A program made the position numbers and the translations under genes. This document shows positions 2,059 to 62,228 of a stretch of DNA of 64,000 bases, in pieces. The DNA is from an uncultured Candidatus Saccharibacteria bacterium (lineage in GTDB: Bacteria > Patescibacteriota > Minisyncoccia > Minisyncoccales > GWA2-38-27). The DNA is taken from assembly GCA_964447515.1 (NCBI GenBank), contig CAYUSS010000001.1, positions 4,092 through 68,091 on the forward strand, given 5' to 3'. The notes under the pieces are model-generated. The model was not told the DNA's origin, searched no databases, and saw only the letters and a program-made list of their open reading frames with translations. Numbering within the stretch: the stretch's first letter is position 1; every line of letters starts with the position of its first letter.

Positions 2059-2075
2059 TTGAAGACGAGCTAAGC

Positions 2076-2234: not shown

Positions 2235-2276
2235 CTTTCCTTTCTTTCCTCCTTCTTTAAAAATTGCTTTTCTGTT

Positions 2277-2693: not shown

Positions 2694-2880
2694 CTTTTCT
2701 CTCCTTCCTTCTTTCAATTTTTGAAGTTGTCAAACTTATTTCTACCGGATTACCAGCAGGTCGTAGCTCTTTTACAACATTTATATATTAGCAAATATTT
2801 ACAAATTTGTCAAGTCCTTTGTAATGGTTTAATGACTTGGAAACACTTTAGGATATAATAGATTTTTTCCACAGAAAACT

Positions 2881-4290: not shown

Positions 4291-4394
4291 AATAATATAT
4301 TATATTCTATTTTTTTTCTTCTTACAATAGAATTATAAATTATATAATCGCGGCATTCGGTCAAAGAAAAAAAGTAAACTTTTTTTCTTTTCCC

Positions 4395-5135
4395 TCACTT
4401 GCGATTATAATGATCAAATTTGTATTTAAAAATATCTGATTTAACCGGTCCCAGAAAAAGCATATAGAGTCCGGCAAAAATATATTTTAGATAGGTTTTT
4501 AATCTTCCGTCTTCTTCTAATCTTCTTGAAGAAATTAAAATAGGTCTTGTTCTCAAAAAGCCGTATTTGCCAAATCCTCTGGCTTTGCGAGCATAAAAAT
4601 GATCTTCTGCTATTTTTATTTCTTCGTCAAAGCCTTTAACAAGCTGATGAATTTCTTTTTTAACCAATATCACTTCGCTGGCATGGGCTAAGAAATTTTG
4701 GCTCAATTTTGCCCAAAAATTGTAAAGCCCATAAGCGATTTTATCTATTATTTTCACTTGGGGACAAACCCTATTAGAAAACCTTGGATTTCTAACCGGG
4801 TAAATTGGGAAAGAAACAATATCTAAATTTCGATTCTTAAATTCTTCCAAAATTTTATCTAAAAATTGAGGCGGCAAAGAAATTATATCGGCGTCTATAA
4901 ATAAAAAAATGCTGCCTTTGGCAATTTTTGCGCCTTGATTTCTTCCTTTAGCCGGCAGACCGCCGGAAGTAATTCTGGAGCCATAACTCTTAGCAATCTC
5001 AATTGTTCTGTCTTTTGAACCGGCATCAGCAATAATTATTTCATAATCCCTAAAATCCTGCTTTTTAATTGACTCCAATAATAAAGAAAGATAATCTTCC
5101 TCATTTAAAGTTGGGATAATAATACTTAAATGCAT
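4395..5135 (-). CDS. family 2 glycosyltransferase
   Basis: N-terminal IIIPTLNEE and a DADII (DxD) motif, typical of the GT2 GT-A fold. Confidence 0.7.
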   Translation of the reverse strand: MHLSIIIPTLNEEDYLSLLLESIKKQDFRDYEIIIADAGSKDRTIEIAKSYGSRITSGGLPAKGRNQGAKIAKGSIFLFIDADIISLPPQFLDKILEEFKNRNLDIVSFPIYPVRNPRFSNRVCPQVKIIDKIAYGLYNFWAKLSQNFLAHASEVILVKKEIHQLVKGFDEEIKIAEDHFYARKARGFGKYGFLRTRPILISSRRLEEDGRLKTYLKYIFAGLYMLFLGPVKSDIFKYKFDHYNRK

Positions 5136-9641: not shown

Positions 9642-11171
9642 TTAGTAATTCAGAAATTTTAATTTTTGTTTTTTGTTCAGCTGCCAGGCAATAAAGCCCA
9701 AAGTTAAATATGAAATTATCAACCAGAACCAATGGACATTTTCAATGGTTTTGGCTGCCCAGGAATGAGAAAAGAAATCTACCACTTTTATTAAATAGGT
9801 TAGTAAAAACCAAACCGGCCAGGATAAAATCCAACCCAGGAACTGCCAAAATATCCCGACCAGACCAAAAATAAAGCCCAAAAGCATAATCCAATATAGA
9901 ATGGGTAGAATTAAAATATTAGTTAAGGGGGCTACTAAGGAAATCCTTCCGAAGTTGTAAATTAAAATTGGCAGAGTAAAAATTTGAGCGGCTAAGGTCA
10001 TTGCCAAAATATTTTTTAAGGCGGCAAGTTTTTTTGGAATAAATTTTAACCAATTATTAAAAGTAGGGGTTAAATAAATAATCCCGAGCACTGCTAAAAA
10101 GGAAAGTTGAAAGCCAACATCATCTAATAAAAGCAAGGGATTTATCGCCAGCATTAGAGCCGCTGCCATTACTATTGTTCTGGGACTAATGGACTTTCTT
10201 CCGAGCTTCTGGCCTAAAAGAAACAATCCACCCATTATTCCGGCTCGAATTCCAGAGGGCTGAAACCCGGTCATAATAATAAAAAGAGAAATAAGAATTA
10301 TTGAAAAATAAAATGCCTGACCTCTCCAAAGGCCCAAACCGAGCAATAAAGACATTAAAATAGTAGTCAAAATAGCAACATGCATTCCGGAAACAGCAGT
10401 AATGTGCCTGACGCCGGCAATATTTAATTTTTCTTTTAAATCTTCCGGTATTCTGCTTTTATCCCCTAAGAGCATAGCTCCTAAAATTGAACTCTGGGGA
10501 GGAGAAAGATTTTGAAAAATACTTTCTCTCAATTTATTTTTAAAACCCAAAATTTTAGCGTAAACGACAGAGGCCCGTCCTCTGTCAGTGACAGAGGACG
10601 GGCCTCTGTAAACTTCGATTTCAGGATAATATATTAGAGAATAAATCCCTTCTTTTCTTAAATAATTCTTATAATTAAAATCTTCAAAAACAGGAGGGGT
10701 TTTTAACTCCCCTGTAATTTTTAATTTATCTCCGTATTGATATTCAGGATAACGATTAGCAGTTGCTAAAACTTTCCCGTCAACAGGGCTAGGCCCGACC
10801 TCGCCCTGGACTTGGCTAACTTTTATAGTTAATTTTATGCTATTTCCCCTGACATCGGGCTCTTTGACAACCGTTCCGAGCAAAGTAATATTTTGTTCTA
10901 AATCATTATATTTTCTTAATTCATCATTCTTAATTTTTAATTCAACTACTTGGTGCCGCCAAATTCCTAAAACCAAAAAAATTAAACAGAAGCCGAGCAC
11001 AATTAGCTTTTTGTATTTAGATAAAACAGAAATTAAAATTATTCCTGAAATTAACCCCGCGCCTATAAATAGGTGCGGGGCAATAAAATCCAGCTGAGCG
11101 ACTATTGAATTCAGAAAAATTCCAGAAATGAAGAAAAGACAGAAATAAAAAAATACCTTTGATTTCGTCAT
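9642..11171 (-). CDS. comEC: ComEC/Rec2 competence membrane protein
   Basis: Polytopic protein with the competence-domain motif VRHITAVSGMHVAIL. It carries an in-frame 41-bp perfect palindrome at 10568-10608. Confidence 0.75.
   Translation of the reverse strand: MTKSKVFFYFCLFFISGIFLNSIVAQLDFIAPHLFIGAGLISGIILISVLSKYKKLIVLGFCLIFLVLGIWRHQVVELKIKNDELRKYNDLEQNITLLGTVVKEPDVRGNSIKLTIKVSQVQGEVGPSPVDGKVLATANRYPEYQYGDKLKITGELKTPPVFEDFNYKNYLRKEGIYSLIYYPEIEVYRGPSSVTDRGRASVVYAKILGFKNKLRESIFQNLSPPQSSILGAMLLGDKSRIPEDLKEKLNIAGVRHITAVSGMHVAILTTILMSLLLGLGLWRGQAFYFSIILISLFIIMTGFQPSGIRAGIMGGLFLLGQKLGRKSISPRTIVMAAALMLAINPLLLLDDVGFQLSFLAVLGIIYLTPTFNNWLKFIPKKLAALKNILAMTLAAQIFTLPILIYNFGRISLVAPLTNILILPILYWIMLLGFIFGLVGIFWQFLGWILSWPVWFLLTYLIKVVDFFSHSWAAKTIENVHWFWLIISYLTLGFIAWQLNKKQKLKFLNY
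10568..10608. repeat. 41-bp perfect palindrome embedded in-frame in comEC (GACGGGC-loop variant of the hairpin family)
   Basis: cagaggcccgtcctctgtca g tgacagaggacgggcctctg. It encodes ...RGPSSVTDRGRAS... inside ComEC. Confidence 0.7.
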
Positions 11172-12205: not shown

Positions 12206-12225
12206 AGTTTTTATCCCCGTAGAAA

Positions 12226-12255
12226 TTCGTTTGTTAAGGTTAGATTTCTAACGGG
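12226..12255. repeat. CCCCGTAGAAAT...ATTTCTAACGGGG hairpin (short member of the CCCCGTAGAA family) in the ftsA-ftsZ spacer
   Basis: Inverted arms ccccgtagaaat / atttctaacgggg. Confidence 0.55.
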
Positions 12256-12257
12256 GT

Positions 12258-13505
12258 TCATGGTATAAAAATTTTTAATATTTTTTTAAATTTATCTTTG
12301 ATTCCCGTTACAAGCCCTGTGCCCTCTTCCTCTTCTTCTAAATCATTTGCTTTTAAAATTAAACCATAAAGTGTAGATAAAGCAGGGTCTTCTTGAAGGG
12401 TAGGGATTTCTTTGGGGATTCCAATTCGGCAAGGCAGATTCAACTCTTTTTTCGCTAAACCAATAATTCTAGGCATCCTTGCTCCTCCTCCAGTTAAGAC
12501 CACTCCTGCCGGAAGCAATCCTTGACGAGAAATTTTCTTTAACTCTTTATCGGTTAAATCAAAAATATCAGAAACCCTGGCTTCAATAATTTCAGTCAAT
12601 CTTTTCGGAGAAAAAATAAGCGGTTCTTCCTCAGCCTCTATATCAATATCTTTGCGAAGAGGCTCAATTTTTATTTTTCTTTCAGTTTTTTTAGGTTTTT
12701 GGGAAAACCGAGAACAGCTGCCAAATTCTAATTTTATTCTCTCGGCAGTATCAATATCTGTTTTAAAACAAGTAGCAATATCATCAGTAATATGACCCGA
12801 GCCTACTGGAAAAATAGCAGTATGAATTAAATTTCCTTCCTCAAATACAGCCAGCCCAGTAGTCCTTGCTCCAATATCTAAAACACAAACCCCTAATTCT
12901 TTCTCTCGAGGGGTCATTACTGCTCGGGAACTGGCTAAAGGGGTAGGAATCAAATCATTAATCTGAAAACCAGATTTTAAAATAGTTTGGCTAGAATTTC
13001 TTAAATAAGGAGAAAAACCGCAAAGAACTAATACAGCCGCCTCTAACCTCACTCCCTGCATACCGGTCACCTCTTTTACACCTCCTTCACCGTCAACAAT
13101 AAATTCTTTAGGGAAAACATCAATAATCTCTTTGTTGGAAGGTAAAGAAAAGGTCTGAGCAGCTTGTAAAACTCTATCAATATCTTCCTCTGAGATTTTT
13201 TGGTCGGCTCGAGAAACAGAAACTAATCCCTGGGAAGAGGTGCAAAATATATGACTTCCTCCAATGCCTGCATAAACATCATTTATGTTTTTGCCACAAC
13301 TTTGCTCAACCTGTTTTTTCAAAGAAGAAATAATTTCTCCTACTTTAAGAACATCAACTACTACCCCTCTTCTTATTCCGAAAGAAGGTTCTTGACCCTG
13401 CCCTAAAACTTCAAAGTCTGTTTTACCGGGTTTTTTTAAAACAGAAAGAATTTTTATTGAGCCCGAACCAATGTCCAGGGCAGTAATGATGTGAGACCTT
13501 GCCAT
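12258..13505 (-). CDS. ftsA: cell division protein FtsA
   Basis: Actin-like ATPase with ALDIGSGSIKIL and the later motif LDIGARTTGLAVF. Confidence 0.85.
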   Translation of the reverse strand: MARSHIITALDIGSGSIKILSVLKKPGKTDFEVLGQGQEPSFGIRRGVVVDVLKVGEIISSLKKQVEQSCGKNINDVYAGIGGSHIFCTSSQGLVSVSRADQKISEEDIDRVLQAAQTFSLPSNKEIIDVFPKEFIVDGEGGVKEVTGMQGVRLEAAVLVLCGFSPYLRNSSQTILKSGFQINDLIPTPLASSRAVMTPREKELGVCVLDIGARTTGLAVFEEGNLIHTAIFPVGSGHITDDIATCFKTDIDTAERIKLEFGSCSRFSQKPKKTERKIKIEPLRKDIDIEAEEEPLIFSPKRLTEIIEARVSDIFDLTDKELKKISRQGLLPAGVVLTGGGARMPRIIGLAKKELNLPCRIGIPKEIPTLQEDPALSTLYGLILKANDLEEEEEGTGLVTGIKDKFKKILKIFIP

Positions 13506-38899: not shown

Positions 38900-41767
38900 T
38901 TAAATTTTCTTAATCCCCAGCCATAATGTTTCCTTATTAACTTTTGCTTCTTTTTTAATTTCAAATTTTATTTTTAATTCCTCTCCGAGCTTAAAATCTT
39001 TAGCCAGAGTTTCTTTCAGAATAAAATCTCTTTTTCTGTTTAAAATTTTATTCAGATGAGTTGGGCCCTGGGCTTGAACTAAAATTTTATCTTTGGGCTT
39101 CAAGCCAGCTTTCTTTCTCAGAGCTTGAATATGTCGAATAACCTCCCGAGCAACTCCTTCCTCTTTAAGTTCTTTTGTAATTTTAGTATCTAATTCTATT
39201 TCTTCGCCAAAAGTAATTTTCTTAACATTAACTTCATCTTTTATTAAATCCAATAAACCTTTTGCTTTTCTTAATTCTTGATTCCTGATTCTTAATTCTT
39301 TCAATGGCTGCCTCACTCTTATCCCTGCTTCTGCCCTCAGACCCAAGGATTGAGTAACAACTTCCCGAACCTGCTCCATTTTTTCTTCTAAATCTGAATT
39401 AATTAATTTTTTATCTGGCTCTGGGTAATCACACAAGTGAACTGATTTTTCTGCGCCATTTAATTTTTGATACAGCTCTTCAGCAATAAAAGGAGTAAAA
39501 GGAGCTATTAGTTTAGTTAGTTTTAAAAGCACATAATATAAAGTTTGAGAGGCCTCTTCTTTTATCTCTTTTGTCTCTGGTCTTTGAAATCTCTTTCGAG
39601 AACGCCGGATATACCAGTTAGATAAATCATCAACAAAATCCTCAAATAATCTAGTCGCCTCCACCACATAGTATTTATCTAAATTTTCTATAATCTGCTG
39701 GCAAAGGTTCTGGAACTGAGAAACAATCCATTTATCAAGTAAGTTTTTGGGGCTAAAATTCTTTTGGGGCTTGAATTTCTTATCAGTATAAGTGGAAAAG
39801 AAAAGGTAAGAATTCCATAAAGTACCAAGGAATCGCCGAGAAATTTCCTGAACATCTTTGAAATCAAATCTTTTGGGTTCTGCTGCCGGATTTATTGTAT
39901 AAAAGTAAAAGCGAGCAGAGTCAGCGCCAAATTTATCAATAACATCTTTTGGCCAAACAACATTGCCTTTTGATTTTGACATTTTCTGGCCCTTAGCATC
40001 CAAAACAATGCCATGGGAGATAACATTTTTGTAAGCCGGGCCCAAATTAAGCAAAGTAGAAACAGCTAACAAAGTATAAAACCAGCCCCTGGTCTGGTCA
40101 ATGCCCTCGCATATAAAATCAGCTGGGAAAAAATTCTTTTTATCAATTTTTTCTTTATTCTCAAAAGGATAATGCCATTGAGCATAAGGCATTGAACCCG
40201 AGTCAAACCAACAATCAACTACTTCAGGAATTCGTCTCATTAGGCCTCCGCACTTTTCACACTTAAAAGTAGCTTTATCAATGGAAGGACGGTGCAAATC
40301 TTGTAACTTGTAACTTGTAACTTGTAACTTTTTTAATTCGTTTAAACTACCAACACAAATTTGCTTATCGCACTTTTCACACTGCCAAATCGGCAAAGGC
40401 GTGCCCCAATATCTTTCCCGAGATAAATTCCAATCTTTAACCTCCCGCAGCCACTCGCCAAACCGCCCATCTTTAAGATAATCTGGTATCCAATTAATTT
40501 TTTTATTATTTTCAAGCAGTTTTTTTCTCAAACCTGACATCTTAATAAACCAAGAGGTCTTGGCGTAATACAATAATGGGCTGTCGCACCGCCAGCAAAA
40601 AGGATAATCGTGTTCATACAGTTCTTTTTTATAAAGTAAATTTCTTTTTTGAAGACTGGCAGTAATTTCTGGGTCAGCGTCTTTTACAAATTTACCTGCC
40701 CAAGGTTTAACTTCTTTTTTAAAAGTACCATCTTCGTTCACTGTTATCAAAATCGGTAAGTCATTTTGCTTGCCAACTTCCATATCCTCCTCTCCAAAAG
40801 CCGGCGCGATATGAACAATACCAGTGCCTTCTTCAGTAGAAATAAAATCACCGGCAACAACCTTAAAAGCTGGCTTCTCTGTTTTCATAAAATCAAATAG
40901 CGGTTCGTATTCTAATTCTAAAAGCTTTTTACCTTTTATTTCTTCAACAATTTTGCCTTTGACGCCACAAGCCTTAAACCTCTCTTTGGCTAAAATCAAA
41001 TATTCATTATTTACTTTCACCTTTGCATAAATAAATTTTGGGTTGACCGCTAATGCTACGTTTGCAGGCAGTGTCCAAGGCGTGGTTGTCCATACTAAAA
41101 GAAAGGTATTAAATTTTTTATTTTTAATTTGTGTTTTTGATTTTTTATTTTTTATTTTTAACTTTAAGAAAATAGCTGGCTCAGATATTTTCTTATATCC
41201 CTGAGCTACTTCATGAGAAGAGAGAGAAGTGCCACAGCGAGGACAATAAGGAACAACTTTGTAATCTTGGTACAAAAGACCCTTTTCCCAAATCTTTTTT
41301 AAAATCCACCACAAACTCTCAATATAATCATTACTGCAGGTAATGTAAGCGTTTTTTAAATCTAGCCAAAAACCAATTCGTTCTGTAAAATCCTCCCATT
41401 CTTTTTTATAAGTGAAAACACTATTCTGACAGGTTTCAATAAATTTCTTAATCCCGATTTTCTCTATGTCTTTTTTAGATTTAATTCCCAGTTTTTTTTC
41501 CGCCTCCATTTCCGTTGGCAAACCATGCGTATCCCAACCAGCCTTTCTTTCAACAGAAAAGCCCTGCATTGTCTTATAACGGAGAATTACATCTTTGAAG
41601 GCCCGGGACAAAAGATGATGAATTCCGGGCAACCCATTAGCAAAAGGCGGTCCTTCAAAAAAAACAAACCTTTTGCCTTTTTTGGTCTTTTTAAGGCTTT
41701 TCTCAAAAATCTTCTTTTCTTTCCAGAATTTTAATATTTTTTCTTCAATTTGCGGAAAATCCATCAT
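38900..41767 (-). CDS. ileS: isoleucine--tRNA ligase
   Basis: HHLLSRAFKDVILRY (HIGH-type), KMSKSKGN, and C-terminal Zn CxxC pairs. It contains the in-frame (CTTGTAA)4 tract and a K-rich low-complexity insertion near 41100-41170. Confidence 0.9.
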   Translation of the reverse strand: MMDFPQIEEKILKFWKEKKIFEKSLKKTKKGKRFVFFEGPPFANGLPGIHHLLSRAFKDVILRYKTMQGFSVERKAGWDTHGLPTEMEAEKKLGIKSKKDIEKIGIKKFIETCQNSVFTYKKEWEDFTERIGFWLDLKNAYITCSNDYIESLWWILKKIWEKGLLYQDYKVVPYCPRCGTSLSSHEVAQGYKKISEPAIFLKLKIKNKKSKTQIKNKKFNTFLLVWTTTPWTLPANVALAVNPKFIYAKVKVNNEYLILAKERFKACGVKGKIVEEIKGKKLLELEYEPLFDFMKTEKPAFKVVAGDFISTEEGTGIVHIAPAFGEEDMEVGKQNDLPILITVNEDGTFKKEVKPWAGKFVKDADPEITASLQKRNLLYKKELYEHDYPFCWRCDSPLLYYAKTSWFIKMSGLRKKLLENNKKINWIPDYLKDGRFGEWLREVKDWNLSRERYWGTPLPIWQCEKCDKQICVGSLNELKKLQVTSYKLQDLHRPSIDKATFKCEKCGGLMRRIPEVVDCWFDSGSMPYAQWHYPFENKEKIDKKNFFPADFICEGIDQTRGWFYTLLAVSTLLNLGPAYKNVISHGIVLDAKGQKMSKSKGNVVWPKDVIDKFGADSARFYFYTINPAAEPKRFDFKDVQEISRRFLGTLWNSYLFFSTYTDKKFKPQKNFSPKNLLDKWIVSQFQNLCQQIIENLDKYYVVEATRLFEDFVDDLSNWYIRRSRKRFQRPETKEIKEEASQTLYYVLLKLTKLIAPFTPFIAEELYQKLNGAEKSVHLCDYPEPDKKLINSDLEEKMEQVREVVTQSLGLRAEAGIRVRQPLKELRIRNQELRKAKGLLDLIKDEVNVKKITFGEEIELDTKITKELKEEGVAREVIRHIQALRKKAGLKPKDKILVQAQGPTHLNKILNRKRDFILKETLAKDFKLGEELKIKFEIKKEAKVNKETLWLGIKKI
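40301..40330. repeat. 30-bp heptanucleotide tandem repeat (CTTGTAA)4 inside ileS, in-frame, encoding KLQVTSYKLQ
   Basis: cttgtaacttgtaacttgtaacttgtaact, identical to 43711-43740 in argS. Confidence 0.8.
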
Positions 41768-42331: not shown

Positions 42332-44008
42332 TTACATTTTTTCAGGACTAGAAATTCCCATTAAATCTAAAATATTTTTTAGAACAATTTTTGTTGCTTG
42401 AACTAAATTCAGCCGGGCTTGGGTTAAATTTTCATCGTCCCCAATCACTCGACATTCCTCATAAAATTTATGAAAAGCTGTTACCAATTCTAAAGCAAAT
42501 TGGGGCAAGCGCTGAAGTTGATAATCTTTAGCTGTATCCTCAACAACTTCTGGAAATCTAATCAACTGCCTTGTCAAATCCATCTCGCTCGGCTCGTCAA
42601 GTAAATTGTCGATCGACAATTTACTTGATGGCGATTTTTTAATCTTTTTTGCTTCTGCTTTTCGGAGAATGCTGGAGATTCGGGCGTGGGCGTATTGGAT
42701 GTAATAAACCGGGTTTTTCTTTGATTGTTTCTTGGCTAATGCCATATCAAAATTTAAGTGAGTATTAGCTGATTTTTGTAAGAAAAAGAATCGAGTAACA
42801 TCTTTTCCAACTTCATTGAGTAATTCGTCCATTGTCACATAAATGCCTTTTCTTTTGGACATTTTTACTTTTTCCTTTTTTTCCAAAAGAGTGACAAACT
42901 GTAAAAGGATGATATCTAATTTTCCCTTATGACCCAAAGCCGCAACTCCAGTCCGCAACCCCTGAACACCGCCAGCGTGGTCAGCTCCCCAGATGTTTAT
43001 TACTTTGTCAAATTTCTTTTTTTTAAATTTATATTTATGGTAAGTAATATCACCGGCTAAATAAGTTTTTGTTCCGTCTTTTTTAACTAAAACTCTGTCT
43101 CTATTATCTCCGAATTTTTTACTTCTAAAAAATTCAGCCCCTTCTTTTTGATAAATTAATTTTTTCTTTTTTAAAAAATTCAAAACTTTGTCAACCTCTC
43201 CGGATTCATAAAGCGTATTCTCGGAAAACCATTCATCAAATTTAATCCCCATTTTCTCAGTTGTTTTCTTGAGCATCTCATCAACTATTATTTTAGCTGC
43301 CTTTTGGCCTGCCTTATATGGGTCTTTCTCCTTAATTTTTTTGTGGAGATAATCAATATACTTTCCTTTATATTTGGCCTCTTTGTCTTTCAAAACCGAA
43401 TGGCCTAAAGCCAAAATCTGATTTCCATAATCATTAATATAATAAGCTTTCTCTACTTTAAAACCAGCTTTTTTCAAAACATTTCCCAAAACATCGCCAA
43501 AAGGACCACTCCGGGCATTACCGACTGTCAAAGGTCCTGTCGGATTAGCGGAAATAAACTCAACCTGAATTTTTTTATTTTTGCCAATATCTAAATCACC
43601 AAATTTCTCGCCTTGCTTCAAAATTTCTCCAACCTGTTTTTGTAAGTATTCTTTACACAAATAAAAATTTATAAAGCCGGGTTTGGCTATTTTGATTCCT
43701 TCAAATAAACCTTGTAACTTGTAACTTGTAACTTGTAACTTTATAACTTCTGCTATCTCTAATGGCTTCCTTTTCAAAACTCTCGTCAATTGCAAACCAA
43801 TGTTTGAAGAATAATCTCCAAACTCCTTATTCTCCGGCCTTTCAACTTCAATTTTCGGTAACTTTTTCAATTTAAATTCCTCTTTAACTGCCTTTTTAAT
43901 TAATTTTTTAAGCTCATCTCTAATCATTCTTTTAGTATAGTTTATTTTAACTCTCGATTCAACTCTCCCCCGCCGCACTTTGTGCAGCAGGGTTTTTTTA
44001 TTGCTCAA
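42332..44008 (-). CDS. argS: arginine--tRNA ligase
   Basis: Class I catalytic core and DALR anticodon-binding C-terminus. It contains the same in-frame (CTTGTAA)4 tract. Confidence 0.85.
   Translation of the reverse strand: MSNKKTLLHKVRRGRVESRVKINYTKRMIRDELKKLIKKAVKEEFKLKKLPKIEVERPENKEFGDYSSNIGLQLTRVLKRKPLEIAEVIKLQVTSYKLQGLFEGIKIAKPGFINFYLCKEYLQKQVGEILKQGEKFGDLDIGKNKKIQVEFISANPTGPLTVGNARSGPFGDVLGNVLKKAGFKVEKAYYINDYGNQILALGHSVLKDKEAKYKGKYIDYLHKKIKEKDPYKAGQKAAKIIVDEMLKKTTEKMGIKFDEWFSENTLYESGEVDKVLNFLKKKKLIYQKEGAEFFRSKKFGDNRDRVLVKKDGTKTYLAGDITYHKYKFKKKKFDKVINIWGADHAGGVQGLRTGVAALGHKGKLDIILLQFVTLLEKKEKVKMSKRKGIYVTMDELLNEVGKDVTRFFFLQKSANTHLNFDMALAKKQSKKNPVYYIQYAHARISSILRKAEAKKIKKSPSSKLSIDNLLDEPSEMDLTRQLIRFPEVVEDTAKDYQLQRLPQFALELVTAFHKFYEECRVIGDDENLTQARLNLVQATKIVLKNILDLMGISSPEKM
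43711..43740. repeat. 30-bp (CTTGTAA)4 tandem repeat inside argS, in-frame, encoding KLQVTSYKLQ
   Basis: Identical 30-mer to 40301-40330. Confidence 0.8.
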
Positions 44009-44033: not shown

Positions 44034-44486
44034 ATGATGACGGTTTTGGCTTACAATCGAAAGGCAATCTATAATTACGAAATCCTGGAGAAATTTGAAG
44101 CGGGCATGGTTTTGATTGGCCAGGAAGTGAAATCAATAAAGTCAGGAAGAATGAGTTTAAAAGGTTCTTATGTAGTTTTAAAAGGAGAAGAGCCCTTTTT
44201 AATCGGGGCTAATATCCCTGCTTATCAGCCAAAAAATGCGCCCCCGGATTATAACCCGGAAAAATCCAGAAAGCTTCTTTTGAATAAATTAGAAATCAAA
44301 CGTTTAATCGGCAAAACCAAAGAAAAGGGCTTGACTTTGGTGCCCTTAAGGGCGTATACTAAAAGAGGTAAAATAAAGCTTGAATTCGGAATTGCCAAAG
44401 GAAGAAAAAAAACCGATAAAAGAGAAATAATTAAAAAAAGAGAAGCCGAAAGGGAAATGAAAAGGGAACTAAAAACCCGGGGGTGA
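44034..44486 (+). CDS. smpB: SsrA-binding protein SmpB
   Basis: MMTVLAYNRKAIYNYEILEKFEAGMVLIGQEVKSIKSG... Confidence 0.9.
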   Translation: MMTVLAYNRKAIYNYEILEKFEAGMVLIGQEVKSIKSGRMSLKGSYVVLKGEEPFLIGANIPAYQPKNAPPDYNPEKSRKLLLNKLEIKRLIGKTKEKGLTLVPLRAYTKRGKIKLEFGIAKGRKKTDKREIIKKREAEREMKRELKTRG

Positions 44487-44828
44487 AAGTTTCGACAGAA
44501 GATTTTACTAAAATAGGGCAAGCCGAGTATTCTCAAATCTCGTAAAACTTTGAGAAAAAAATAAGTGCTAACTTATTCAAAAAACCTGCGTTAGCATTTG
44601 CCTAACGCCATCAGGATTACCGATTCTCGCTAAGTAATCTCTGGTGTAATAATTAGCGAGATAGATAGTTTTTTCTTCGCCTCAAAATAATTATCAAAAC
44701 TTTTCGAGGTCAGGATATTAAGCTTTTTGTCTGTTTTCTACTTGGTATCCGAGACTAAAACAGACTAAGTTTGTAGAACTGTTTTAGCAAAACTTCTGGA
44801 CAAGGGTCCAATCCCTTCATCTCCACAA
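44479..44828 (+). ncRNA. ssrA: tmRNA (SsrA), about 350 nt; proposed tag ANLFKKPALAFA
   Basis: Starts at gggggtgaaagtttcgacag (tRNA-like 5' end) overlapping the smpB stop. The 3' end has the T-arm agggtccaatccct and the acceptor strand tcatctcc, which pairs with the 5' GGGGGUGA. The internal frame gct aac tta ttc aaa aaa cct gcg tta gca ttt gcc taa codes ANLFKKPALAFA then stop. Confidence 0.75.
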
Positions 44829-44868
44829 CAAAAAATAACCTAAAAATAGTCTGCCAAAAAAATTCCTC

Positions 44869-45393
44869 ATTAATCATCAAATAAAAGCCAGAGAGGTAAG
44901 AATCATTGACCAGACCGGAAAACAATTGGGGATTATGCCATTAATAGAAGCGCTCCGAACAGCCAGGGAGCGTAGTTTAGATTTAATTCAGGTTACAGAA
45001 AAAGTGATACCTCCTGTTTGTAAAATCGGAGATTATGGAAAATATCTTTATCGGCAAAAAAAGAAAGAGAAATTAGCCAAACCTAAGGGGGGCGAACTTA
45101 AGGGGATAAGATTAACTTTCAGAATTTCTGAGCATGATTTAGAAACAAGAGCCCATCAGGCAGAAAAATTTTTAAAAAAAGGGAACAAGGCCAGAATAGA
45201 AATGAAATTAAGGGGAAGAGAAAAAGCCCTTCAGGGATTTGCTAAAGAAAAAATTAAAAAGTTTCTTGAAATCTTAGAAAAATCAATCCCAATAAAAATT
45301 GAGGGAGAATTACAAAGGAAGCCAAGAGGGCTAACAATGATTATTTCAAAAGCATATGTCAAAGACGAGGAAATCAATAAAAAAACGTTTTAA
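44869..45393 (+). CDS. infC: translation initiation factor IF-3 (ATT start)
   Basis: The track ORF starts at the internal Met 44926. The upstream in-frame sequence INHQIKAREVRIIDQTGKQLGIM matches the IF-3 N-terminus, and the frame opens after TAA at 44836. ATT at 44869 is the classic infC start. Confidence 0.75.
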   Translation: MNHQIKAREVRIIDQTGKQLGIMPLIEALRTARERSLDLIQVTEKVIPPVCKIGDYGKYLYRQKKKEKLAKPKGGELKGIRLTFRISEHDLETRAHQAEKFLKKGNKARIEMKLRGREKALQGFAKEKIKKFLEILEKSIPIKIEGELQRKPRGLTMIISKAYVKDEEINKKTF

Positions 45394-45544
45394 AATTACC
45401 AAAACTGGCAAGGTCCTGAGAAGAGCAATTGGTCAGGACCATTATCGGGCAAAAAAATCAGGAAAGCAAAAAAGAGAAACTCGAAAATGGGTTTTGGTTT
45501 CCAATGTTGAAGCCAAAAAAATAAAGAAATTGTTTAAACAGTAA
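45356..45544 (+). CDS. rpmI: 50S ribosomal protein L35
   Basis: MSKTRKSIKKRFKITKTGKVLRR...; overlaps the infC 3' end. Confidence 0.8.
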   Translation: MSKTRKSIKKRFKITKTGKVLRRAIGQDHYRAKKSGKQKRETRKWVLVSNVEAKKIKKLFKQ

Positions 45545-45551
45545 ATAATAT

Positions 45552-45899
45552 ATGGTCAGGATAAAAAGAGGAAAGACAGCTCATAAACGAAGAAAACATC
45601 TCTTAAAAGAGGTCAAAGGTTTTCGTTGGGGAAGAAAATCAAAATACAAATCAGCAAAAGAGGCCTTAAGACACGCCTGGGTCTATGCTTATAGAGATAG
45701 AAAAACCAAAAAAAGAGAAATAAGAAAACTCTGGCAAGTTCGAATTAATGCTGCCAGCCGAGAACTCGGCTTGCCTTATAGCCGTTTTATCCAAGGATTG
45801 AAGAAAAAAAAGATTGAGCTTGATAGAAAAATTTTAGCCGACTTAGCCCAAAACAACCCAGAAATCTTCAAAAAAATTGTTGAGGAAGTTAAAAAATAA
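45552..45899 (+). CDS. rplT: 50S ribosomal protein L20
   Basis: [51 protein letters not shown]. Confidence 0.9.
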
Positions 45900-45900
45900 A

Positions 45901-45965
45901 ATGTAACGCGGAAAGGTAACGTTACATCGTTACAATAAAGTAGACATAATTGACAAACGGCCGTT
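45901..45965. terminator. two consecutive perfect palindromes after rplT (bidirectional terminator candidate)
   Basis: atgtaacgcggaaaggtaacgttacat, then agacataattgacaaacgg/ccgtttgtcaattatgtct with 19-bp arms. Confidence 0.5.
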
Positions 45966-46116
45966 TGTCAATTATGTCTAAAAACATTCTCGAGATGTCC
46001 GGTTGTGTTAAAAAAGCCGCTTTTTCAAGGTGGCTTTTGAATTTTCCCGGTAAAAACTCCGGGGTTTCTAACAGAAGAAATATAAAAAATCGCGTCGTCA
46101 GGGTGGGATAAGACAT

Positions 46117-46146
46117 CTCTAATAGAAAAGAGGGGCGGTGTTGTAC
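46117..46146 (-). terminator. intrinsic terminator of the ParB-like gene
   Basis: Minus strand gggacggtacaacaccgcccc hairpin followed by tcttttctatt. Confidence 0.55.
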
Positions 46147-46152
46147 CGTCCC

Positions 46153-47364
46153 TTAGGCTGATGCCTTTTTTCTGAGCTCAGAAAGAACCCACTTTGCCTC
46201 TTCGGTGATTTGGGCTACCTGCCGACGAATCTTTCTGGGAAGAAACCTCCAAAGATGGGGTAAAAGAAGCTCCTCTTGAACAAGTAATTCTCGGAAAACG
46301 CGGACTGGACTTAGTTCAGAAAAAGGAGAATCCTCCTGCCCCAATTTCTCCTCCCTAAACAAAGTGAGAACCCGCTTGAGGTAGTAAATCCACATCCAGA
46401 TAGCCTGAATGGCCTGCCGCTCAACCACCTTACGAAAATGACTTCTTTCCAGCTCCTGTTGCTCTTCCACGCTCAAAAGGCTAATAAGCGAAAATTGACC
46501 AGAGTTATAGGTGCGCAAAAACTCGGTGACCATGTCCCGAACTTTCTTGACTCGCAAATTATCGGTTATCGCTGTCAATGCCCACCACTCTATCTCTGAC
46601 TCCTTTAGCCCTGCCTTCTGCTGAAGCCGAGCGATTTCGCAAGCTACCCCGTAGGGAATTTGGCCATTTTCGACAAATTCCCGGACGCCAGCTGGCAGAA
46701 GGCAGAATTTTACCGCCTGCCGGATGGTGCTCGGACTCCGGCCTACTTGCTTGGCAAATCGAGCCAAGGGGTAGTTTGGATCCATTTGTCTGATGAGCCG
46801 AAAGAGCTGGTCGTAGAAGGTCGCCTCCTCATGGGCCGGCAGCTTCATGTGGATGTTCTCGGAGGCCTGGATAAAAACCGCCTCCAAGGGCGGGATATTG
46901 ATGCAGAGACGCACCTCCACGCTTTGGTCGCCGAAGTGGCGCTCGTAGCAATAACTATCCTTGCCAAATTGTTCCTGGCATTGTTCACAGCCAACATCTC
47001 GTAGATACAAACAGGCTCTGAATCGACGCTCACCAGCCAGCAGGATGTAAAAAGCTTTCTTGCCTTCATCTATAGCAATAAGATCACTTGTTTTATAGGT
47101 TGTTGCCCAGAGCCGATTGATGAGGCTAAGATAGTGTCGACAGCCTGTCTCACAAAATCGAGCCACAATAAGAGGATTCATAAGGTTCTTGGCAGCTATA
47201 TCTTCTGCCAGAAGCTCAATCTCCTCAAAGGTCTGGCGGGGCTGTAGCAACACATTGATATCAGCAAGAGCTATACGTGCCCCAACATACTGATGAGGCT
47301 CAAGGCCGTTTTTCCTAAGCAACGACGTCAGGGAAGTTGGCGCCGTCTTTGATTTTGTTGTCAT
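46153..47364 (-). CDS. ParB/Srx-like nuclease-domain protein with HTH (403 aa); atypically GC-rich
   Basis: ParB box II-like GERRFRA within ...AFYILLAGERRFRACLYL, a Cys-rich insert (CETGCRHY...CEQCQEQFGKDSYCYERHFG), and the HTH LARFAKQVGRSPSTIRQAVKF. GC is about 50% against about 33% in the flanks. Confidence 0.6.
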   Translation of the reverse strand: MTTKSKTAPTSLTSLLRKNGLEPHQYVGARIALADINVLLQPRQTFEEIELLAEDIAAKNLMNPLIVARFCETGCRHYLSLINRLWATTYKTSDLIAIDEGKKAFYILLAGERRFRACLYLRDVGCEQCQEQFGKDSYCYERHFGDQSVEVRLCINIPPLEAVFIQASENIHMKLPAHEEATFYDQLFRLIRQMDPNYPLARFAKQVGRSPSTIRQAVKFCLLPAGVREFVENGQIPYGVACEIARLQQKAGLKESEIEWWALTAITDNLRVKKVRDMVTEFLRTYNSGQFSLISLLSVEEQQELERSHFRKVVERQAIQAIWMWIYYLKRVLTLFREEKLGQEDSPFSELSPVRVFRELLVQEELLLPHLWRFLPRKIRRQVAQITEEAKWVLSELRKKASA

Positions 47365-47459
47365 GGCTATTATCCCTCCCTGTTGTTGTGTCCATTTTCT
47401 AGTCCGTATTCTACTGTCAAAGTACTTTTAAGGGTTTCCGATAGAAAAAGTAAAGCTTC

Positions 47460-47731
47460 CTAATCCTTTCCGTTTTTTATCTTAATACCTTCTTTTTGTA
47501 AAAGCAAGGTTTTTTTCTTAGCCCCCTGATAATAGCCACCGATTTTTCCATCAGAATAAACTACCCGATGACAGGGGATTTTTTTATTTCTATTTTTTTT
47601 AAGGATATTCCCTACCACCCGCCAAGCTCTGGGATAACCTGTTTTCTAGGCTACTGTTTTGTAGGTCAAAAAACTCCCCTTGGGGATTTTTTAAACAACT
47701 TCAAAAACTTTATTGCGAAAAACTGTTTCAT
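47460..47731 (-). pseudogene. ogt: remnant of O6-methylguanine-DNA methyltransferase (ogt), C-terminal domain only, disrupted
   Basis: Minus-strand translation gives ...IPKGSFLTYKTVA*KTGYPRAWRVVGNILKKNRNKKIPCHRVVYSDGKIGGYYQGAKKKTLLLQKEGIKIKNGKD. This shows the PCHRVV active-site motif but carries an in-frame TAG, a frameshift relative to the MKQFFAIKFLKLFKK start, and lacks the N-terminal domain. Confidence 0.7.
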
Positions 47732-47741
47732 GTTTCATGCT

Positions 47742-48194
47742 TTATGTTTTATGTTTTTTGAGGAAATCATTGGCTTTTTTTAAAATTTCTTTTGATTTTT
47801 TAAAATTCAGTTGTTCAAGAGCTCGTTCATAAGGCAGCCATTTATATCCAGTATGCTCAAAAGAAATTTTTACTTCTTTAGTTTTTGTTTCTGCTAAATA
47901 AAAAGTGACTATTTTAAAAACCAAAGAAGCTTTTCCTTTTTCTTCTCTTTTCAAATTATAAGTACTCCGGAAAAAATATTTTATCCATTCTTTAAAACCT
48001 TTTATTATTTTAATATCTTCAATGCCTGTCTCTTCTTTAACTTCCCGCTTTGCTGTTTCCTCTTCGCTTTCGCCTTTTTCAATATGTCCTTTTGAAAAAT
48101 CCCAATGCCCTACTTCATAATGCAAAAGCAGGTAATAAATCTCATTATTTTCCTTCCTAAAAATTACAGCTCCAGCTGATTTCTCAAAAGGCAT
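47742..48194 (-). CDS. NUDIX hydrolase
   Basis: Nudix box GHIEKGESEEETAKREVKEETG. Confidence 0.8.
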   Translation of the reverse strand: MPFEKSAGAVIFRKENNEIYYLLLHYEVGHWDFSKGHIEKGESEEETAKREVKEETGIEDIKIIKGFKEWIKYFFRSTYNLKREEKGKASLVFKIVTFYLAETKTKEVKISFEHTGYKWLPYERALEQLNFKKSKEILKKANDFLKKHKT

Positions 48195-48195
48195 A

Positions 48196-48278
48196 CCCCG
48201 TAGAAGAATTTCGAATTAAAAATTTCTTCGAAATTTTTTATTTGCCCCGCAGGGGCCTTTCGAAATTTCTCTACGGGG
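48196..48278. repeat. palindromic element with CCCCGTAGAAGAATTTCGA / TCGAAATTTCTCTACGGGG arms (CCCCGTAGAA family)
   Basis: The arms are near-identical to the 1981-2058 copy but the core differs (contains ccccgcagggg). Confidence 0.6.
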
Positions 48279-48345
48279 TATAATAATATCTCTCTTTATC
48301 TTAATCCTAAATTATAAAAAATAAAACCCAAAAAAAATTATTAGA

Positions 48346-48374
48346 CTTGACAGTTTTTTTTAAATGACTAATAT
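48346..48374 (+). promoter_or_regulatory. sigma70-type promoter (TTGACA-17-TAATAT) driving the 48381-48809 RNA
   Basis: ttgaca gttttttttaaatgac taatat. Confidence 0.55.
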
Positions 48375-48380
48375 AACATA

Positions 48381-48809
48381 GAGTGCGAGGGAAGGTCCAA
48401 AATGCATTGCCCGGTATAGCTGAAAATAGTGATTACGAACACTGAGGAAAACCCGCTTTCAGCAAGCTGGGCAATGCAGCAATTATTTTTTAGAAATCTG
48501 GTCTGTCCGAGAACAGCACAGTAGAGGTAAAAGGCTCCGCACTATAATAGGGCAAATAACCTGCTACACAGCGCTCGGCAGCACCGGAGCCCCGCTTGAG
48601 CGGGGCGCAATAGTTCTTTCAGATTTGGGATGGTGAAAAGGCAACGATAGAGGCTTCCCGCTTAGCACCCCCCCCAAGCCCCTATGTCGTTTTTTCTCAT
48701 AGCCGTCCTATTATATAGGGTTGTGAAAAAAGTTGTGTCTCAGTTCCCATCAAGACACGGCTACTCCTTTCTCAACCCCGGCCGGGCTAACACTAGTCCG
48801 GCTTTTTTT
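48381..48809 (+). ncRNA. rnpB: large structured ncRNA, best candidate for RNase P RNA (type A-like)
   Basis: GC-rich and non-coding, with a promoter upstream and the terminator gccgggctaacactagtccggc+TTTTTTT. Motifs occur in RNase P order: gaggtaaaaggctccgc...atagggcaaataacctg (compare GAGGAAAGUCCGGGCUCCAUAGGGCA..GGUAAC), a GC hairpin gccccgcttgagcggggc, ggtgaaaaggcaacgatagaggc (compare GGUGAAANGGUGCGGUAAGAGCGC), and acacggctac near the 3' end (compare ACAGAAcCCGGCUUA). The 5' gagggaagg can pair with the 3' cctttctc (P1-like). This is a hand comparison only. Confidence 0.45.
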
Positions 48810-48824
48810 ATTCACCCCGTTTAG

Positions 48825-48846
48825 AAATTCACGATTTCTAACGGGG
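48825..48846. repeat. CCCCGT(T)AGAAAT...ATTTCTAACGGGG hairpin; supplies the polX stop codon
   Basis: ccccgtttagaaattcacgatttctaacgggg. The polX C-terminal ...KPR plus TAG stop is read from it. Confidence 0.55.
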
Positions 48847-50568
48847 TTTAAAATATTTTAATAATTTTTCCAAAGGTCGGGTGTTAATTATGTCTTTTTT
48901 CTCCGCCCAGCCGCGGCGAGCCTGGTATACTCCGAATTCCATATATCTCATCTGGCTTTTGTGATGACTATCAGTATTAATGACCAATCTCACTCCCATT
49001 TCAATGGCTTTTTTTATATTGATGTCGTTTAAATCTAATCTTCCAGGAAAAGAATTTATTTCTAAAATTGTATTGGTTTCTTGGGCGGCTCTTAAAATTT
49101 TTTCTATATCTATTTGGTATTCATCTCTCTTTTTTAAAATTCTTCCGGTTGGATGGGAAATAATTTTAATATAGGGGTTTTTCATTGCTTGAATTATCCT
49201 CTCGGTCATCTTTTCTTTTGACATTTTAAAGTTGGAGTGAATCCCGGCAATGGCATAGTCCAATTTTTTTAATGCCTCATCTTTAATATCAATGGAACCG
49301 TCATTTAAGATATTGGTTTCTGCTCCTTGAAGAATTCTAAACTTTATATTTTGTATCTTGTATTTCCTGTTTAATTTATCTATTTCTTCCCGCTGCTGAG
49401 CTAATTGTTCCTCATTTAATCCCTGTTCAATTCGTAAAAATTTTGTATGGTCAGTAATCCCTAAATATTCATATCTTCGCACCATAGCCATATCTTCCAT
49501 CTCTTTAATTGAATTTTGCCCTCCATCCCATTTTGAATGACAATGTAAATCCCCCCTTATATCTTTTAATTCTACTAATTTTGGCAATTTTCTTTTTAGA
49601 GCGGCTTCAATTTCCCCTTGATTTTCTCTTATTTCCGGAGGAATCCATTGGAGGCCAAGAACTTTATAAACACCTTCTTCGGTTTTGCCGGCAATCATTT
49701 TCTTGCCCCGAAAAACCCCGTATTCATTAAGTTTTAAACCTTTCTCTAGGGCAATTTTTCTGGTAGCAATATTATGCTCTTTTGAACCAATAAAATACTG
49801 CAGAGCAGAACCATAACTTTTTTCAGGAACCACCCTGAGATCCATATCAAAACCATCTCTCATTCGGACCGAGGACTTTGTTGCGCCTCTACCCCAAATT
49901 CTAATAACTCCTGGCAAAGAAACAAAAAAATCCATTATTTTTTTTGGATTTTTTGAAATTACCAAGAAATCAACATCACCGATTGTTTCTTTCCTTCTTC
50001 TAACCGAACCGGCTACTGAAATTTTCTGAACCTCCTTTAAATTTTTAAGTTTTTCTTCAATTTCTTTAACAATGGGTAAAATATTCCCTAAAAGAAATCT
50101 TCCCTTACTTTTCTTTAAGAAAGCGATTCCCTCTAAAATATTTTTCTCTGTTTTTATTCCAAAACCTTCTAAATTTCTAATTTTCCTGGCTTTAGCGACT
50201 TTTTCTAAATCTTTTAGGTCCTTCACTCCAAGTTCTTGAAAAAGAACTTTTGCTCTTTTAGGCCCCATTCCTTCAACCTTTGTTATCTCTTCTAAATTTA
50301 GAGGCAGTTTCTTTTTAAATTTTTCGTAATATTTAATCTTTCCTGTTTTTAGATATTCTTCAATTTTTTGGGCAATGCTTTCCCCAACACCGGGAATTTC
50401 TTCAAGCGCCTTAATCCCTCCTCTTTCATAAATCTCCTTAACATCCCTCTCTAAGGATTCTAAATTAAGAGCGGCTTTTTGGTAAGCATAGGGCTTAAAT
50501 TGAACTTCTTCTATTTCTAAGAAGTAAGCTATCTCGAAAAAAATCTTAGCCAATTCCTGGTTATTCAT
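48838..50568 (-). CDS. polX: DNA polymerase X family protein with C-terminal PHP domain
   Basis: HhH motifs, Pol-beta-like GSVRRRKETIGDVDFLV, and the PHP domain HCHSKWDGG...DHT. Confidence 0.85.
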   Translation of the reverse strand: MNNQELAKIFFEIAYFLEIEEVQFKPYAYQKAALNLESLERDVKEIYERGGIKALEEIPGVGESIAQKIEEYLKTGKIKYYEKFKKKLPLNLEEITKVEGMGPKRAKVLFQELGVKDLKDLEKVAKARKIRNLEGFGIKTEKNILEGIAFLKKSKGRFLLGNILPIVKEIEEKLKNLKEVQKISVAGSVRRRKETIGDVDFLVISKNPKKIMDFFVSLPGVIRIWGRGATKSSVRMRDGFDMDLRVVPEKSYGSALQYFIGSKEHNIATRKIALEKGLKLNEYGVFRGKKMIAGKTEEGVYKVLGLQWIPPEIRENQGEIEAALKRKLPKLVELKDIRGDLHCHSKWDGGQNSIKEMEDMAMVRRYEYLGITDHTKFLRIEQGLNEEQLAQQREEIDKLNRKYKIQNIKFRILQGAETNILNDGSIDIKDEALKKLDYAIAGIHSNFKMSKEKMTERIIQAMKNPYIKIISHPTGRILKKRDEYQIDIEKILRAAQETNTILEINSFPGRLDLNDINIKKAIEMGVRLVINTDSHHKSQMRYMEFGVYQARRGWAEKKDIINTRPLEKLLKYFKPR

Positions 50569-53291: not shown

Positions 53292-53308
53292 AATTCAACA
53301 ATTCTATA

Positions 53309-53347
53309 ATACGAGACCCGACCTCGTAACGAGGTCGGGTCTCGTAT
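53309..53347. terminator. 39-bp perfect palindrome atacgagacccgacctcgt aa cgaggtcgggtctcgtat (GTCGGGT-loop hairpin on both strands), bidirectional terminator candidate
   Basis: 19-bp perfect arms, followed by ttacgttttt. Confidence 0.6.
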
Positions 53348-53374
53348 TTACGTTTTTATAAGAACCTGCCTCGC

Positions 53375-61579: not shown

Positions 61580-62158
61580 ATGAAAAAGCCCCAAATAAGA
61601 TATTTATATGATATGAAAGAAGTTCTCTATGACCAGAAATGGGCAAAAACAGCTCCTAATTTTGAACTTTATTATATGTATAGGGGTATTAAAAAAAAGA
61701 ATGATTTAAGGTATGATATTACTGTCATCCCGGCTAAAATGTTAGGTCAAGAATTTGTTAAAACTAAAGGACACGAACATCTTGGAAAATTTGGAGAGGT
61801 CTACATTGTCCTTGAAGGTCAAGCAATCTTTTTGATGCAAAAGCAAGAAGGGCAGGAAATTGAAGATGTTTATGCTATCAAAGCTAAAAAAGGTGATGTG
61901 GCTATTATTCCTTCCTATTATGGACATGTTACTATCAACCAGTCTAAAAAAGATTTGAAAATGGCTAATTGGGTTTCTGACAATTGCGAAAGTGATTATC
62001 AGCCATTTTTAAAAAAACAAGGAGCTTGTTATTTCTATACTAAAAACGGCTGGATTAAAAATAAAAATTACAAAAAAATTCCCAAACTCCGCTTTGAGAA
62101 ACCTTTAAAATCAATGCCAAAGAATTTGGATTTCTTAAACCCCGTAGAGAAAATTTGA
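61580..62158 (+). CDS. pgiA: cupin-type glucose-6-phosphate isomerase (archaeal-type cPGI)
   Basis: Cupin metal motif KTKGHEHLGKFGEVY, and a size (192 aa) typical of cPGI. Confidence 0.55.
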   Translation: MKKPQIRYLYDMKEVLYDQKWAKTAPNFELYYMYRGIKKKNDLRYDITVIPAKMLGQEFVKTKGHEHLGKFGEVYIVLEGQAIFLMQKQEGQEIEDVYAIKAKKGDVAIIPSYYGHVTINQSKKDLKMANWVSDNCESDYQPFLKKQGACYFYTKNGWIKNKNYKKIPKLRFEKPLKSMPKNLDFLNPVEKI

Positions 62159-62228
62159 CTGCCTTTGGCAAATAGTGTTTTGTTTTACAAAACACCTGTC
62201 AAATTTCTTCTACGGGGTAAAGGGATAA

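Follow-up and report, generated by a model that had tools for sequence, protein, structure and literature searches.

A horizontally acquired gene for an orphan ParB-type protein, putatively a nucleotide-switched DNA-binding clamp, in place of a purF-like gene in a genome of the Candidate Phyla Radiation

We have analysed a 64-kb stretch of contig CAYUSS010000001.1 (hereafter, the window), from an uncultured bacterium of the Candidate Phyla Radiation (CPR), with a focus on a GC-rich islet situated between ogt and the ribosomal-protein gene rplT. The islet consists of a single gene, intact and acquired horizontally, which has a probable terminator of its own and replaces a purF-like gene of purine synthesis. 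The acquired gene, an open reading frame (ORF) of 403 aa on the minus strand (46153-47364), which had been called correctly in an earlier note on this DNA, encodes an orphan protein of the ParB/Noc/KorB type, as assigned from the ORF, Pfam, a family profile, an AlphaFold2 model and Foldseek searches. What was observed here is the fold, a conserved nucleotide pocket, the lack of a nearby parA, the replacement of a gene and a codon composition foreign to the genome, and we lean towards regarding the product as a DNA-binding protein of the ParB type governed by a nucleoside triphosphate (NTP)/cytidine triphosphate (CTP) switch. The host genome was viewed through the window, and all window-wide negative results given below cover that span.

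Single-sequence scans recognised the helix-turn-helix (HTH) domain HTH_ParB (Pfam PF17762; 25 bits, cutoff 22.6; residues 197-282), with the ParB_N, parB_part and nucleoid_noc models all scoring under their cutoffs. The best NCBIfam match was to nucleoid_noc (TIGR04285; 34.8 bits, cutoff 315), and parB_part (TIGR00180) reached 32.9 bits, below its cutoff of 58.45. A profile of 39 homologues searched against the PDB matched Spo0J (E=7e-16), ParB and Noc, with E values in the range from 7e-16 to 1e-10; the matching segments were QPRxTF, GERRxRA and ENxH...EEA together with the HTH. The AlphaFold2 model had a predicted local distance difference test (pLDDT) score of 86.3 and a predicted template modelling (pTM) score of 0.74. 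In Foldseek searches with this model, the best matches were ParB in complex with cytidine diphosphate (CDP; 6sdk, E=5e-9) and the structures 7bnk and 7bnr of ParB bound to CDP or CTPγS, all with a probability of 1.00; further matches were Noc (7nfu, TM-score 0.73), ParB with parS (6t1f, TM-score 0.71) and KorB (8qa8, 8qa9). Those of the DNA-binding domain were to structures of Noc with its binding site (NBS), ParB with parS, and KorB. Viral matches to the protein were generic ParB-like proteins, and the matches in PHROGs were weak and belonged to ‘ParB-like partition protein’ families. The earlier note had proposed a ParB-like nuclease domain; both fold and profile point instead to the CTP-binding clamp type (Spo0J, Noc, ParB and KorB), with nucleotide pocket and HTH intact.

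All three motifs of the pocket are present, on the minus strand as the gene itself. Box I (Q41-P-R43-Q-T45-F46; 47227-47244), a nucleotide-pocket motif aligning with QPRK.F of Spo0J, has Q41, R43, T45 and F46 invariant in 39 members of the family. Box II (GERRFRA, G111-A117; 47014-47034), the phosphate-binding motif, aligns with GERRFRA/GERRYRA of Spo0J and is invariant in G111, E112, R113 and R114. Box III (Q166-x-S-E169-N170-x-H172; 46849-46869), the catalytic EN motif, aligns with ENLQRE of Spo0J; Q166 and N170 are invariant, and E169 and H172 are kept in at least 90% of members. Since the invariant columns are mostly pocket residues (Q41, R43, G111, E112, R113, R114, Q166 and N170; n=39), selection appears to keep an NTP site of the CTP-switch type, and not a DGHHR-type or other nuclease centre. 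The window copy retains every family-invariant residue.

Two insertions distinguish the N-domain. A family-specific helix-strand insertion of about 40 residues lies between boxes I and II, and a CCCH knuckle (C126, C129, C139 and H143; 46936-46989, minus strand; pLDDT 90-96) lies between boxes II and III. The knuckle, with the spacing C-x2-C-x9-13-C-x3-H, is found in 30-32 of the 39 members, and the seven most divergent lack the whole of it; it probably binds zinc and would stabilise or extend the N-domain. The ParB-type HTH DNA-binding domain (residues 197-282; 46519-46776, minus strand) is identified concordantly by PF17762, by alignment with Spo0J and Noc and by Foldseek. Beyond it lies a C-terminal domain of three helices (residues 288-403; 46156-46503, minus strand; AlphaFold2 pLDDT 92.1) with a conserved DSPFSE-SP loop, for which Foldseek found no match among PDB folds (best E=3.7) and Pfam gave no match; by analogy, it is presumed to be a dimerisation module. 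The GERRFRA motif, the Cys-rich insertion and the HTH pointed out in the earlier note are thus present, and they are conserved in the family.

Sister genomes were located through the identity of their PolX proteins with that of the window (86%, 81% and 76%). In the 86% and 76% sisters the gene order MFS transporter-PolX-NUDIX-ogt-[purF-like gene]-rplT-rpmI-infC-(tmRNA)-smpB is kept, the purF-like gene encoding about 450 aa with a full-length match to TIGR01134 (E=1e-60) that is nevertheless under the equivalog cutoff. The 81% sister has a glycosyltransferase gene directly after NUDIX, without ogt, and its contig stops short of rplT. As the sisters differ there, the position between NUDIX/ogt and rplT is variable. 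In the window, where the neighbours were identified as ogt, NUDIX, PolX, rplT, rpmI and infC, the ParB-like gene fills the slot of the purF-like gene in the same orientation. The replaced segment, or the islet proper, is bounded by the stop codons of rplT and ogt (45900-47459), as delimited by synteny with loci L060 and L062; at this position the 86% and 76% sisters have the purF-like gene and a terminator spacer of 53-60 bp. No purF remnant was found in the window by tblastn, and the spacers flanking the gene in the islet showed no similarity to the sisters or to any fetched locus. Because two sisters hold the purF-like gene exactly there and the window has no remnant of it, the islet of approximately 1.56 kb is best explained by gene replacement.

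These results modify the original description of the locus as a horizontally acquired, partly degraded insertion of 2.4 kb. The islet itself and its acquisition stand, the latter on account of sister synteny, outlying GC content at third codon positions (GC3) and the patchy distribution of the family in the CPR; the size is reduced to the approximately 1.56 kb given above. Partial degradation does not hold, as the imported gene is intact with all family-invariant residues kept, and the pseudogene ogt is a native neighbour outside the insertion. Nor does the protein look like a conserved core-genome protein of its lineage, two sisters having the purF-like gene instead and the window copy being outlying in GC3.

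The window has a GC content of 35.5%, that of a low-GC CPR genome, and the nearest named proteins to its PolX are from Candidatus Nealsonbacteria. Against this background the ParB-like ORF stands at 49.3% GC vs 35% in the flanks, with a peak of 55% in 400-nt windows across it, and sub-segments of the islet have GC fractions of 0.36, 0.40, 0.53, 0.49 and 0.39. Its GC3 is 0.53 vs a mean of 0.28 in 14 flanking genes (z=6.2); as GC3 also deviates, the anomaly is not solely an amino-acid effect. The GC-rich character of the islet, reported previously, is therefore confirmed. The composition shifts abruptly, and a 40-bp palindrome lies nearby in which several contigs break; both would suit a chimeric assembly or contaminating DNA of another organism, an explanation to which we give almost no credence. 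Six independently assembled contigs (from different JGI/SRA samples) are 100% identical to the window where they overlap the islet region, and at least one of them, L009 (6.6 kb; from PolX through smpB), crosses both islet junctions, so that an assembly chimera is excluded.

A word-indexed search for relatives returned 56 clusters, the taxonomically named ones all from the CPR (Niyogi-, Portnoy- and Daviesbacteria), and an exhaustive profile search returned at least 353 clusters (50% identity, E≤1e-30), all of about 400 aa and with end-to-end matches. A minimum of 21 loci came from representative genomes of GTDB, under the labels Levy-, Wolfe- and Uhrbacteria, Paceibacterota, Saccharibacteria and others. 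The family is scattered patchily over CPR lineages, and all its named members are CPR; no names were found for the protein's own clusters. The nearest relative of the window protein shares merely 60% identity with it, and the donor of the gene has therefore not been sampled. Three of 23 family loci (the window, L030 and L065) are GC3 outliers, the rest being host-like (|z|<2), and the two nearest sampled relatives both adjoin efp-fmt, with some local vertical synteny there. Overall, the family looks like a long-resident CPR accessory gene that is occasionally transferred, the window representing one recent transfer. In addition, two Saccharibacteria loci (L034, 5854-7116, and L035) encode a 420-aa protein with 26-27% identity that shares the helix insertion between boxes I and II. 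The family probably extends well past the 353 clusters counted at E≤1e-30.

It should be noted that in locus L027 (34% identity; 2061-4906) the ParB-like gene also lies near smpB-tmRNA-infC-rplT, approximately 860 nt downstream of the tmRNA gene (the corresponding interval in the window being 44034-47364), and that in L015 and L065 it is located 0.5-2.2 kb downstream of tRNA-Gln. This proximity could be a coincidence or a weak preference for such variable spots. In all, three family loci have the gene 0.5-2.2 kb away from tRNA-Gln or tmRNA, but an island targeted to tRNA/tmRNA was rejected for want of an integrase and because this frequency does not exceed expectation.

By analogy with characterised ParB-type proteins, a nucleotide, a clamp behaviour, a mode of dimerisation, metal binding, a DNA target and a cellular role may be proposed for the window protein. 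It would form a dimer via its family-specific helical C-terminal domain and, by homology, use the canonical ParB-type HTH to recognise a specific DNA site. The nucleotide, CTP or perhaps a different NTP, would enter the N-terminal pocket that boxes I (QPR), II (GERR) and III (EN) make up; its binding would cause the N-domains to engage, so that the dimer becomes a clamp able to spread or slide away from the loading site, and its hydrolysis would release the clamp. The protein is more likely to act in nucleoid-associated regulation or organisation, in the manner of Noc, KorB, VirB and BisD, than in ParA-driven segregation, because no parA is nearby and the gene comes and goes among lineages.

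Searches for the DNA target were negative. A canonical parS (TGTTNCACGTGAAACA-like) was absent from the window at up to three mismatches, and no parS-, NBS- or OB-like palindrome was shared near the gene across 22-24 family loci. Within the gene, synonymous-site conservation among 13 homologues revealed no outstanding stretch, and Rfam gave no match to an embedded element. The only repeated GC-containing palindrome of the window, TTTACCGGTAAA (26301 and 28829), was rejected as a chance occurrence, both copies being inside unrelated coding regions with no flank similarity.

Several observations weigh against the reading of the protein as an orphan clamp-type regulator. No DNA target was found, the parS, shared-palindrome and synonymous-site searches all being null, and our view of the host genome spans 64 kb. 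Many relatives, but not the window copy (N-terminus TSLTSLLRK), carry an N-terminal (R/K)GLxxLAxxL that is only loosely like the ParA-activating peptide LG(R/K)GL; to go by this faint likeness, a ParA may be encoded at a distance. A Cys-motif family, described below, lies next to the gene in five other lineages, which hints at a partner or a role outside the clamp-regulator picture. Furthermore, a recent survey of ParB-fold proteins (bioRxiv 10.1101/2025.10.10.680097) describes their nucleotide specificity as unpredictable from sequence or AlphaFold3, and reports that some bind ATP or GTP and some nothing in vitro.

Among the other explanations, the first is that the protein is the chromosome-partition ParB of the organism, with ParA encoded elsewhere and parS beyond the window. 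Its N-domain and HTH are of the canonical type, the GLxxLAxxL segment of many family members recalls the ParA-stimulating peptide, and the genome view is limited to 64 kb; we nevertheless hold this explanation to be unlikely. With Soj of B. subtilis as tblastn probe, 19 canonical parB loci, retrieved in the same scan as the family loci, proved to have parA immediately upstream of parB, whereas none was detected within approximately 6 kb in about 26 family loci, nor in the window. Sister genomes, moreover, do not have the gene at the islet position, its codon composition is foreign, its parB_part score is well short of the cutoff, its C-terminal domain is unrelated to known folds and no parS occurs in the window. 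More doubtful still is the suggestion of the earlier note that the gene specifies a nuclease of the ParB/Srx fold, or that its product takes part in defence or anti-defence on a small mobile element. The patchy distribution and the clear signature of horizontal transfer would agree with it, an IS200-type Y1 transposase adjoins one family locus, and examples of ParB/Srx-fold nucleases as well as of orphan ParBs with ties to mobile elements have been described (bioRxiv 10.1101/2025.10.10.680097). However, PADLOC gave nothing significant (its sole match being mad1, E=0.017 over 27 residues), no nuclease or defence Pfam family was found in the protein, and searches of IMG/VR, GenBank phages and PLSDB plasmids turned up no relatives. 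The neighbours in about 25 family loci are ordinary housekeeping genes, with no enriched neighbour family according to neighbour clustering and a Pfam scan of 106 neighbouring ORFs; no integrase was found among the neighbours of the family loci and no direct or inverted repeats bound the islet. Most family loci are host-like in composition, with some vertical synteny by efp-fmt, and the structural neighbours are clamps, not nucleases. A mobile-element or defence module is accordingly not borne out.

A third explanation concerns a recurrent neighbour, a CPR-specific protein of 340-400 aa (at least 123 clusters, no Pfam match) with the invariant motifs PxDFHxLR, ALW..R..C and C-x2-CPI-x3-C. Its gene lies right beside that of the ParB-like protein in five separate lineages, the pair taking three different orientations (L001, 7257-8402, minus strand; L021, 4197-5405, minus; L027, 4960-5973, minus; L028, 4792-5835, plus; L068, 5001-6158, plus), and both families are restricted to the CPR and without Pfam annotation. 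The window protein might then be one half of a CPR-specific two-protein module for DNA transactions, present here as a solo copy, in which the ParB fold recruits or regulates the Cys-motif partner. We regard this as improbable: the partner is missing from the window and from approximately 80% of family loci, and in two of the three partner loci sampled (L069 and L070) a gene for a different conserved protein, of about 330 aa, comes after the Cys-motif gene. The sole functional hint for the partner is a weak match to an archaeal 8-oxoguanine glycosylase (E=0.47). Similarly low is the chance of a bolder version, namely that the protein and the Cys-motif protein make up a new two-component system for DNA transactions in the CPR, the former acting as its DNA-loading subunit, or that the protein forms an imported unit together with a GC-rich structured RNA encoded 1 kb away. 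An acquired, intact orphan ParB-type protein with an NTP/CTP switch is thus the reading that we retain.

The genes adjoining the islet on the ogt side are native. The NUDIX hydrolase gene (47742-48194, minus strand; Pfam NUDIX, E=5e-18) lies outside the islet, and its product is 79% identical to that of the NUDIX gene at the same position in a sister. The ogt gene (47460-47738, minus strand; 92 codons) has its PCHRVV motif intact and two in-frame stops, TAA at 47691-47693 (codon 16; CAA in a sister) and TAG at 47646-47648 (codon 31). It aligns with the sister proteins, which are intact and 89-94 aa long, over residues 1-85 and 1-91 at 65-67% identity, and Pfam PF01035 covers its distal 52 aa; six contigs agree on this region. 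The earlier note had taken it for a C-terminal remnant broken by a frameshift and a TAG. Its inactivation, the TAG and the PCHRVV motif are upheld, but the gene is full length, in one frame, and carries two nonsense codons. An intact ogt under the correct frame or code is not what was found either: one frame is complete, but TAA and TAG are ordinary stops in this genome, as is TGA. We conclude that ogt is a recently inactivated native gene adjoining the insertion and not degraded cargo.

The non-coding parts of the islet are short. Directly after the stop codon of the ParB-like gene, a hairpin with a U-rich tail (approximately 46121-46152, minus strand; minimum free energy (MFE) -13.2 kcal/mol, z=-1.9, with 8 of 200 shuffles folding as well) is a probable intrinsic terminator, in agreement with the terminator of its own ascribed to the gene previously; the consensus terminator scan passed over it owing to one stem mismatch. 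The spacer upstream of the gene (47365-47459, minus strand; 95 bp) has a GGGAGG 9 nt before the ATG. As the promoter scan listed no convincing sigma-70 promoter on the minus strand of this spacer, transcription may read through from NUDIX-ogt. The 40-bp perfect palindrome (45941-45980), which separates the convergent genes rplT and ParB-like, is terminator-like on the minus strand and probably serves as a bidirectional terminator; it is also a candidate binding site. As a site linked to the family it was rejected, since other loci carry unrelated terminator palindromes and the window has three more long perfect ones. These, of unrelated sequence, are at 10567-10609 (43 bp), 42597-42628 (32 bp) and 53308-53348 (41 bp); two of the long palindromes sit inside ORFs (the 509-aa ORF 9642-11171 and argS), which is unusual for coding sequence. 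In addition, identical arrays of the heptamer (CTTGTAA)x4.4 occur at 40300-40330 and 43711-43741, 3.4 kb apart, the second of them within argS.

A second lineage-specific insertion of 643 bp (48195-48837) is located between NUDIX and PolX, where the gap is 3-26 bp in the three sisters. It contains a GC-rich (46%) RNA-like gene of approximately 430 nt on the plus strand, with a promoter-like TTGACA-16-TAATAT (48347-48374) and a terminator (48780-48803) followed by T7. Its predicted fold is strongly non-random (MFE -155.9 kcal/mol, z=-5.9). No Rfam match was obtained even at E≤10, no homologues were found in the fetched loci with blastn or nhmmer, and two pattern scans of metagenomes were empty, the first having used a wrong spacer length. 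A likeness to the P4/J15 motifs of RNase P, seen by eye, was rejected as an identification, Rfam giving no RNase P signal at E≤10. No consistent GC-rich non-coding region was found near homologues of the ParB-like gene, and a functional link between this gene and the structured RNA is not supported.

Within the same insertion, a CCCCGTAGA palindromic element (48193-48281) was confirmed; it does not border the islet, as had been thought, being part of the 643-bp insertion with the native NUDIX and ogt genes in between. It is one of three full copies of approximately 80 bp (1981-2058, 48193-48281 and 62140-62217) of a CCCCGTAGA(A)-ended inverted-repeat family, which also has short hairpin forms of approximately 35-45 bp (12215-12260 and 48815-48848). 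Of the copies, one lies directly against the NUDIX start codon, another overlaps the stop codon of PolX and a further one is just upstream of tRNA-Leu (62229). These elements are a family of repetitive extragenic palindromes (REP) or miniature inverted-repeat transposable elements (MITE) in character, or of sequence-conserved terminators.

CPR bacteria, or Patescibacteria, have very small genomes, and the organisation and segregation of their DNA are poorly understood. The present locus is a clean single-gene replacement, of a purF-like by a ParB-like gene, in a variable spot beside conserved ribosomal-protein genes, and such replacements show that reduced CPR genomes are still swapping genes. 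It also brings to light a sizeable unannotated CPR-only family with a ParB fold, without a ParA partner and with a metal-knuckle insertion and a new C-terminal domain. The find is incremental, the fold and the likely mechanism being already known and no new function having been demonstrated.

Compared with canonical ParB/Spo0J, the window protein has the same residues in boxes I, II and III and the same architecture of the DNA-binding domain, but it differs in having neither a parA nor a parS found, in the two insertions of its N-domain, in its C-terminal domain and in its scores under the cutoffs. Noc of Firmicutes gave the best global superposition (7nfu) and, as nucleoid_noc, the best NCBIfam match. 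Noc, an orphan ParB paralogue that originated by duplication beside parAB, has a CTP switch and a function other than partition; in contrast, the family of the window gene is dispersed among housekeeping genes, the NCBIfam score of the window protein is far below the Noc cutoff, its C-terminus is different and no evidence was found in it for the membrane-targeting N-terminal helix that is a trait of Noc. KorB, VirB and BisD are CTP-dependent ParB-like transcription regulators encoded on plasmids and integrative and conjugative elements together with partner genes (KorA, IncC). They resemble the window protein in combining a ParB fold with an HTH, in serving regulation over segregation and in the horizontal mobility of their genes, and the two KorB structures were recovered by Foldseek; the sequence match to KorB in the profile search against the PDB was insignificant (E=0.5). 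Unlike these genes, that of the window lies amid chromosomal housekeeping genes and has no plasmid or phage relatives. TasParB of the TIGR-Tas systems (PMC12045711), a ParB-like protein from CPR bacteria and their phages with predicted C-terminal dimerisation, is encoded in an operon with tasA and flanked by TIGR arrays. The window gene has ogt, NUDIX and rplT as neighbours, with no tandem (TIGR-like) array in the 40-54 kb part of the window, and is set apart from TasParB on the published description of the latter.

Finally, the class of orphan ParBs, with their lineage-specific additions, is widespread and has already been recognised (Kaljevic et al., bioRxiv 10.1101/2025.10.10.680097), and the present family adds a concrete example to its recently recognised diversity. 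This CPR family is unmentioned in that survey, the text of which contains neither ‘Patescibacteria’ nor ‘CPR’ nor ‘zinc’. In common with the surveyed proteins, the window protein has an N-domain with boxes I-III and an HTH, is encoded away from parA, carries lineage-specific extra domains and shows signs of mobility; it differs from them in the CCCH insertion within the N-domain and in a three-helix C-terminal domain without structural relatives.

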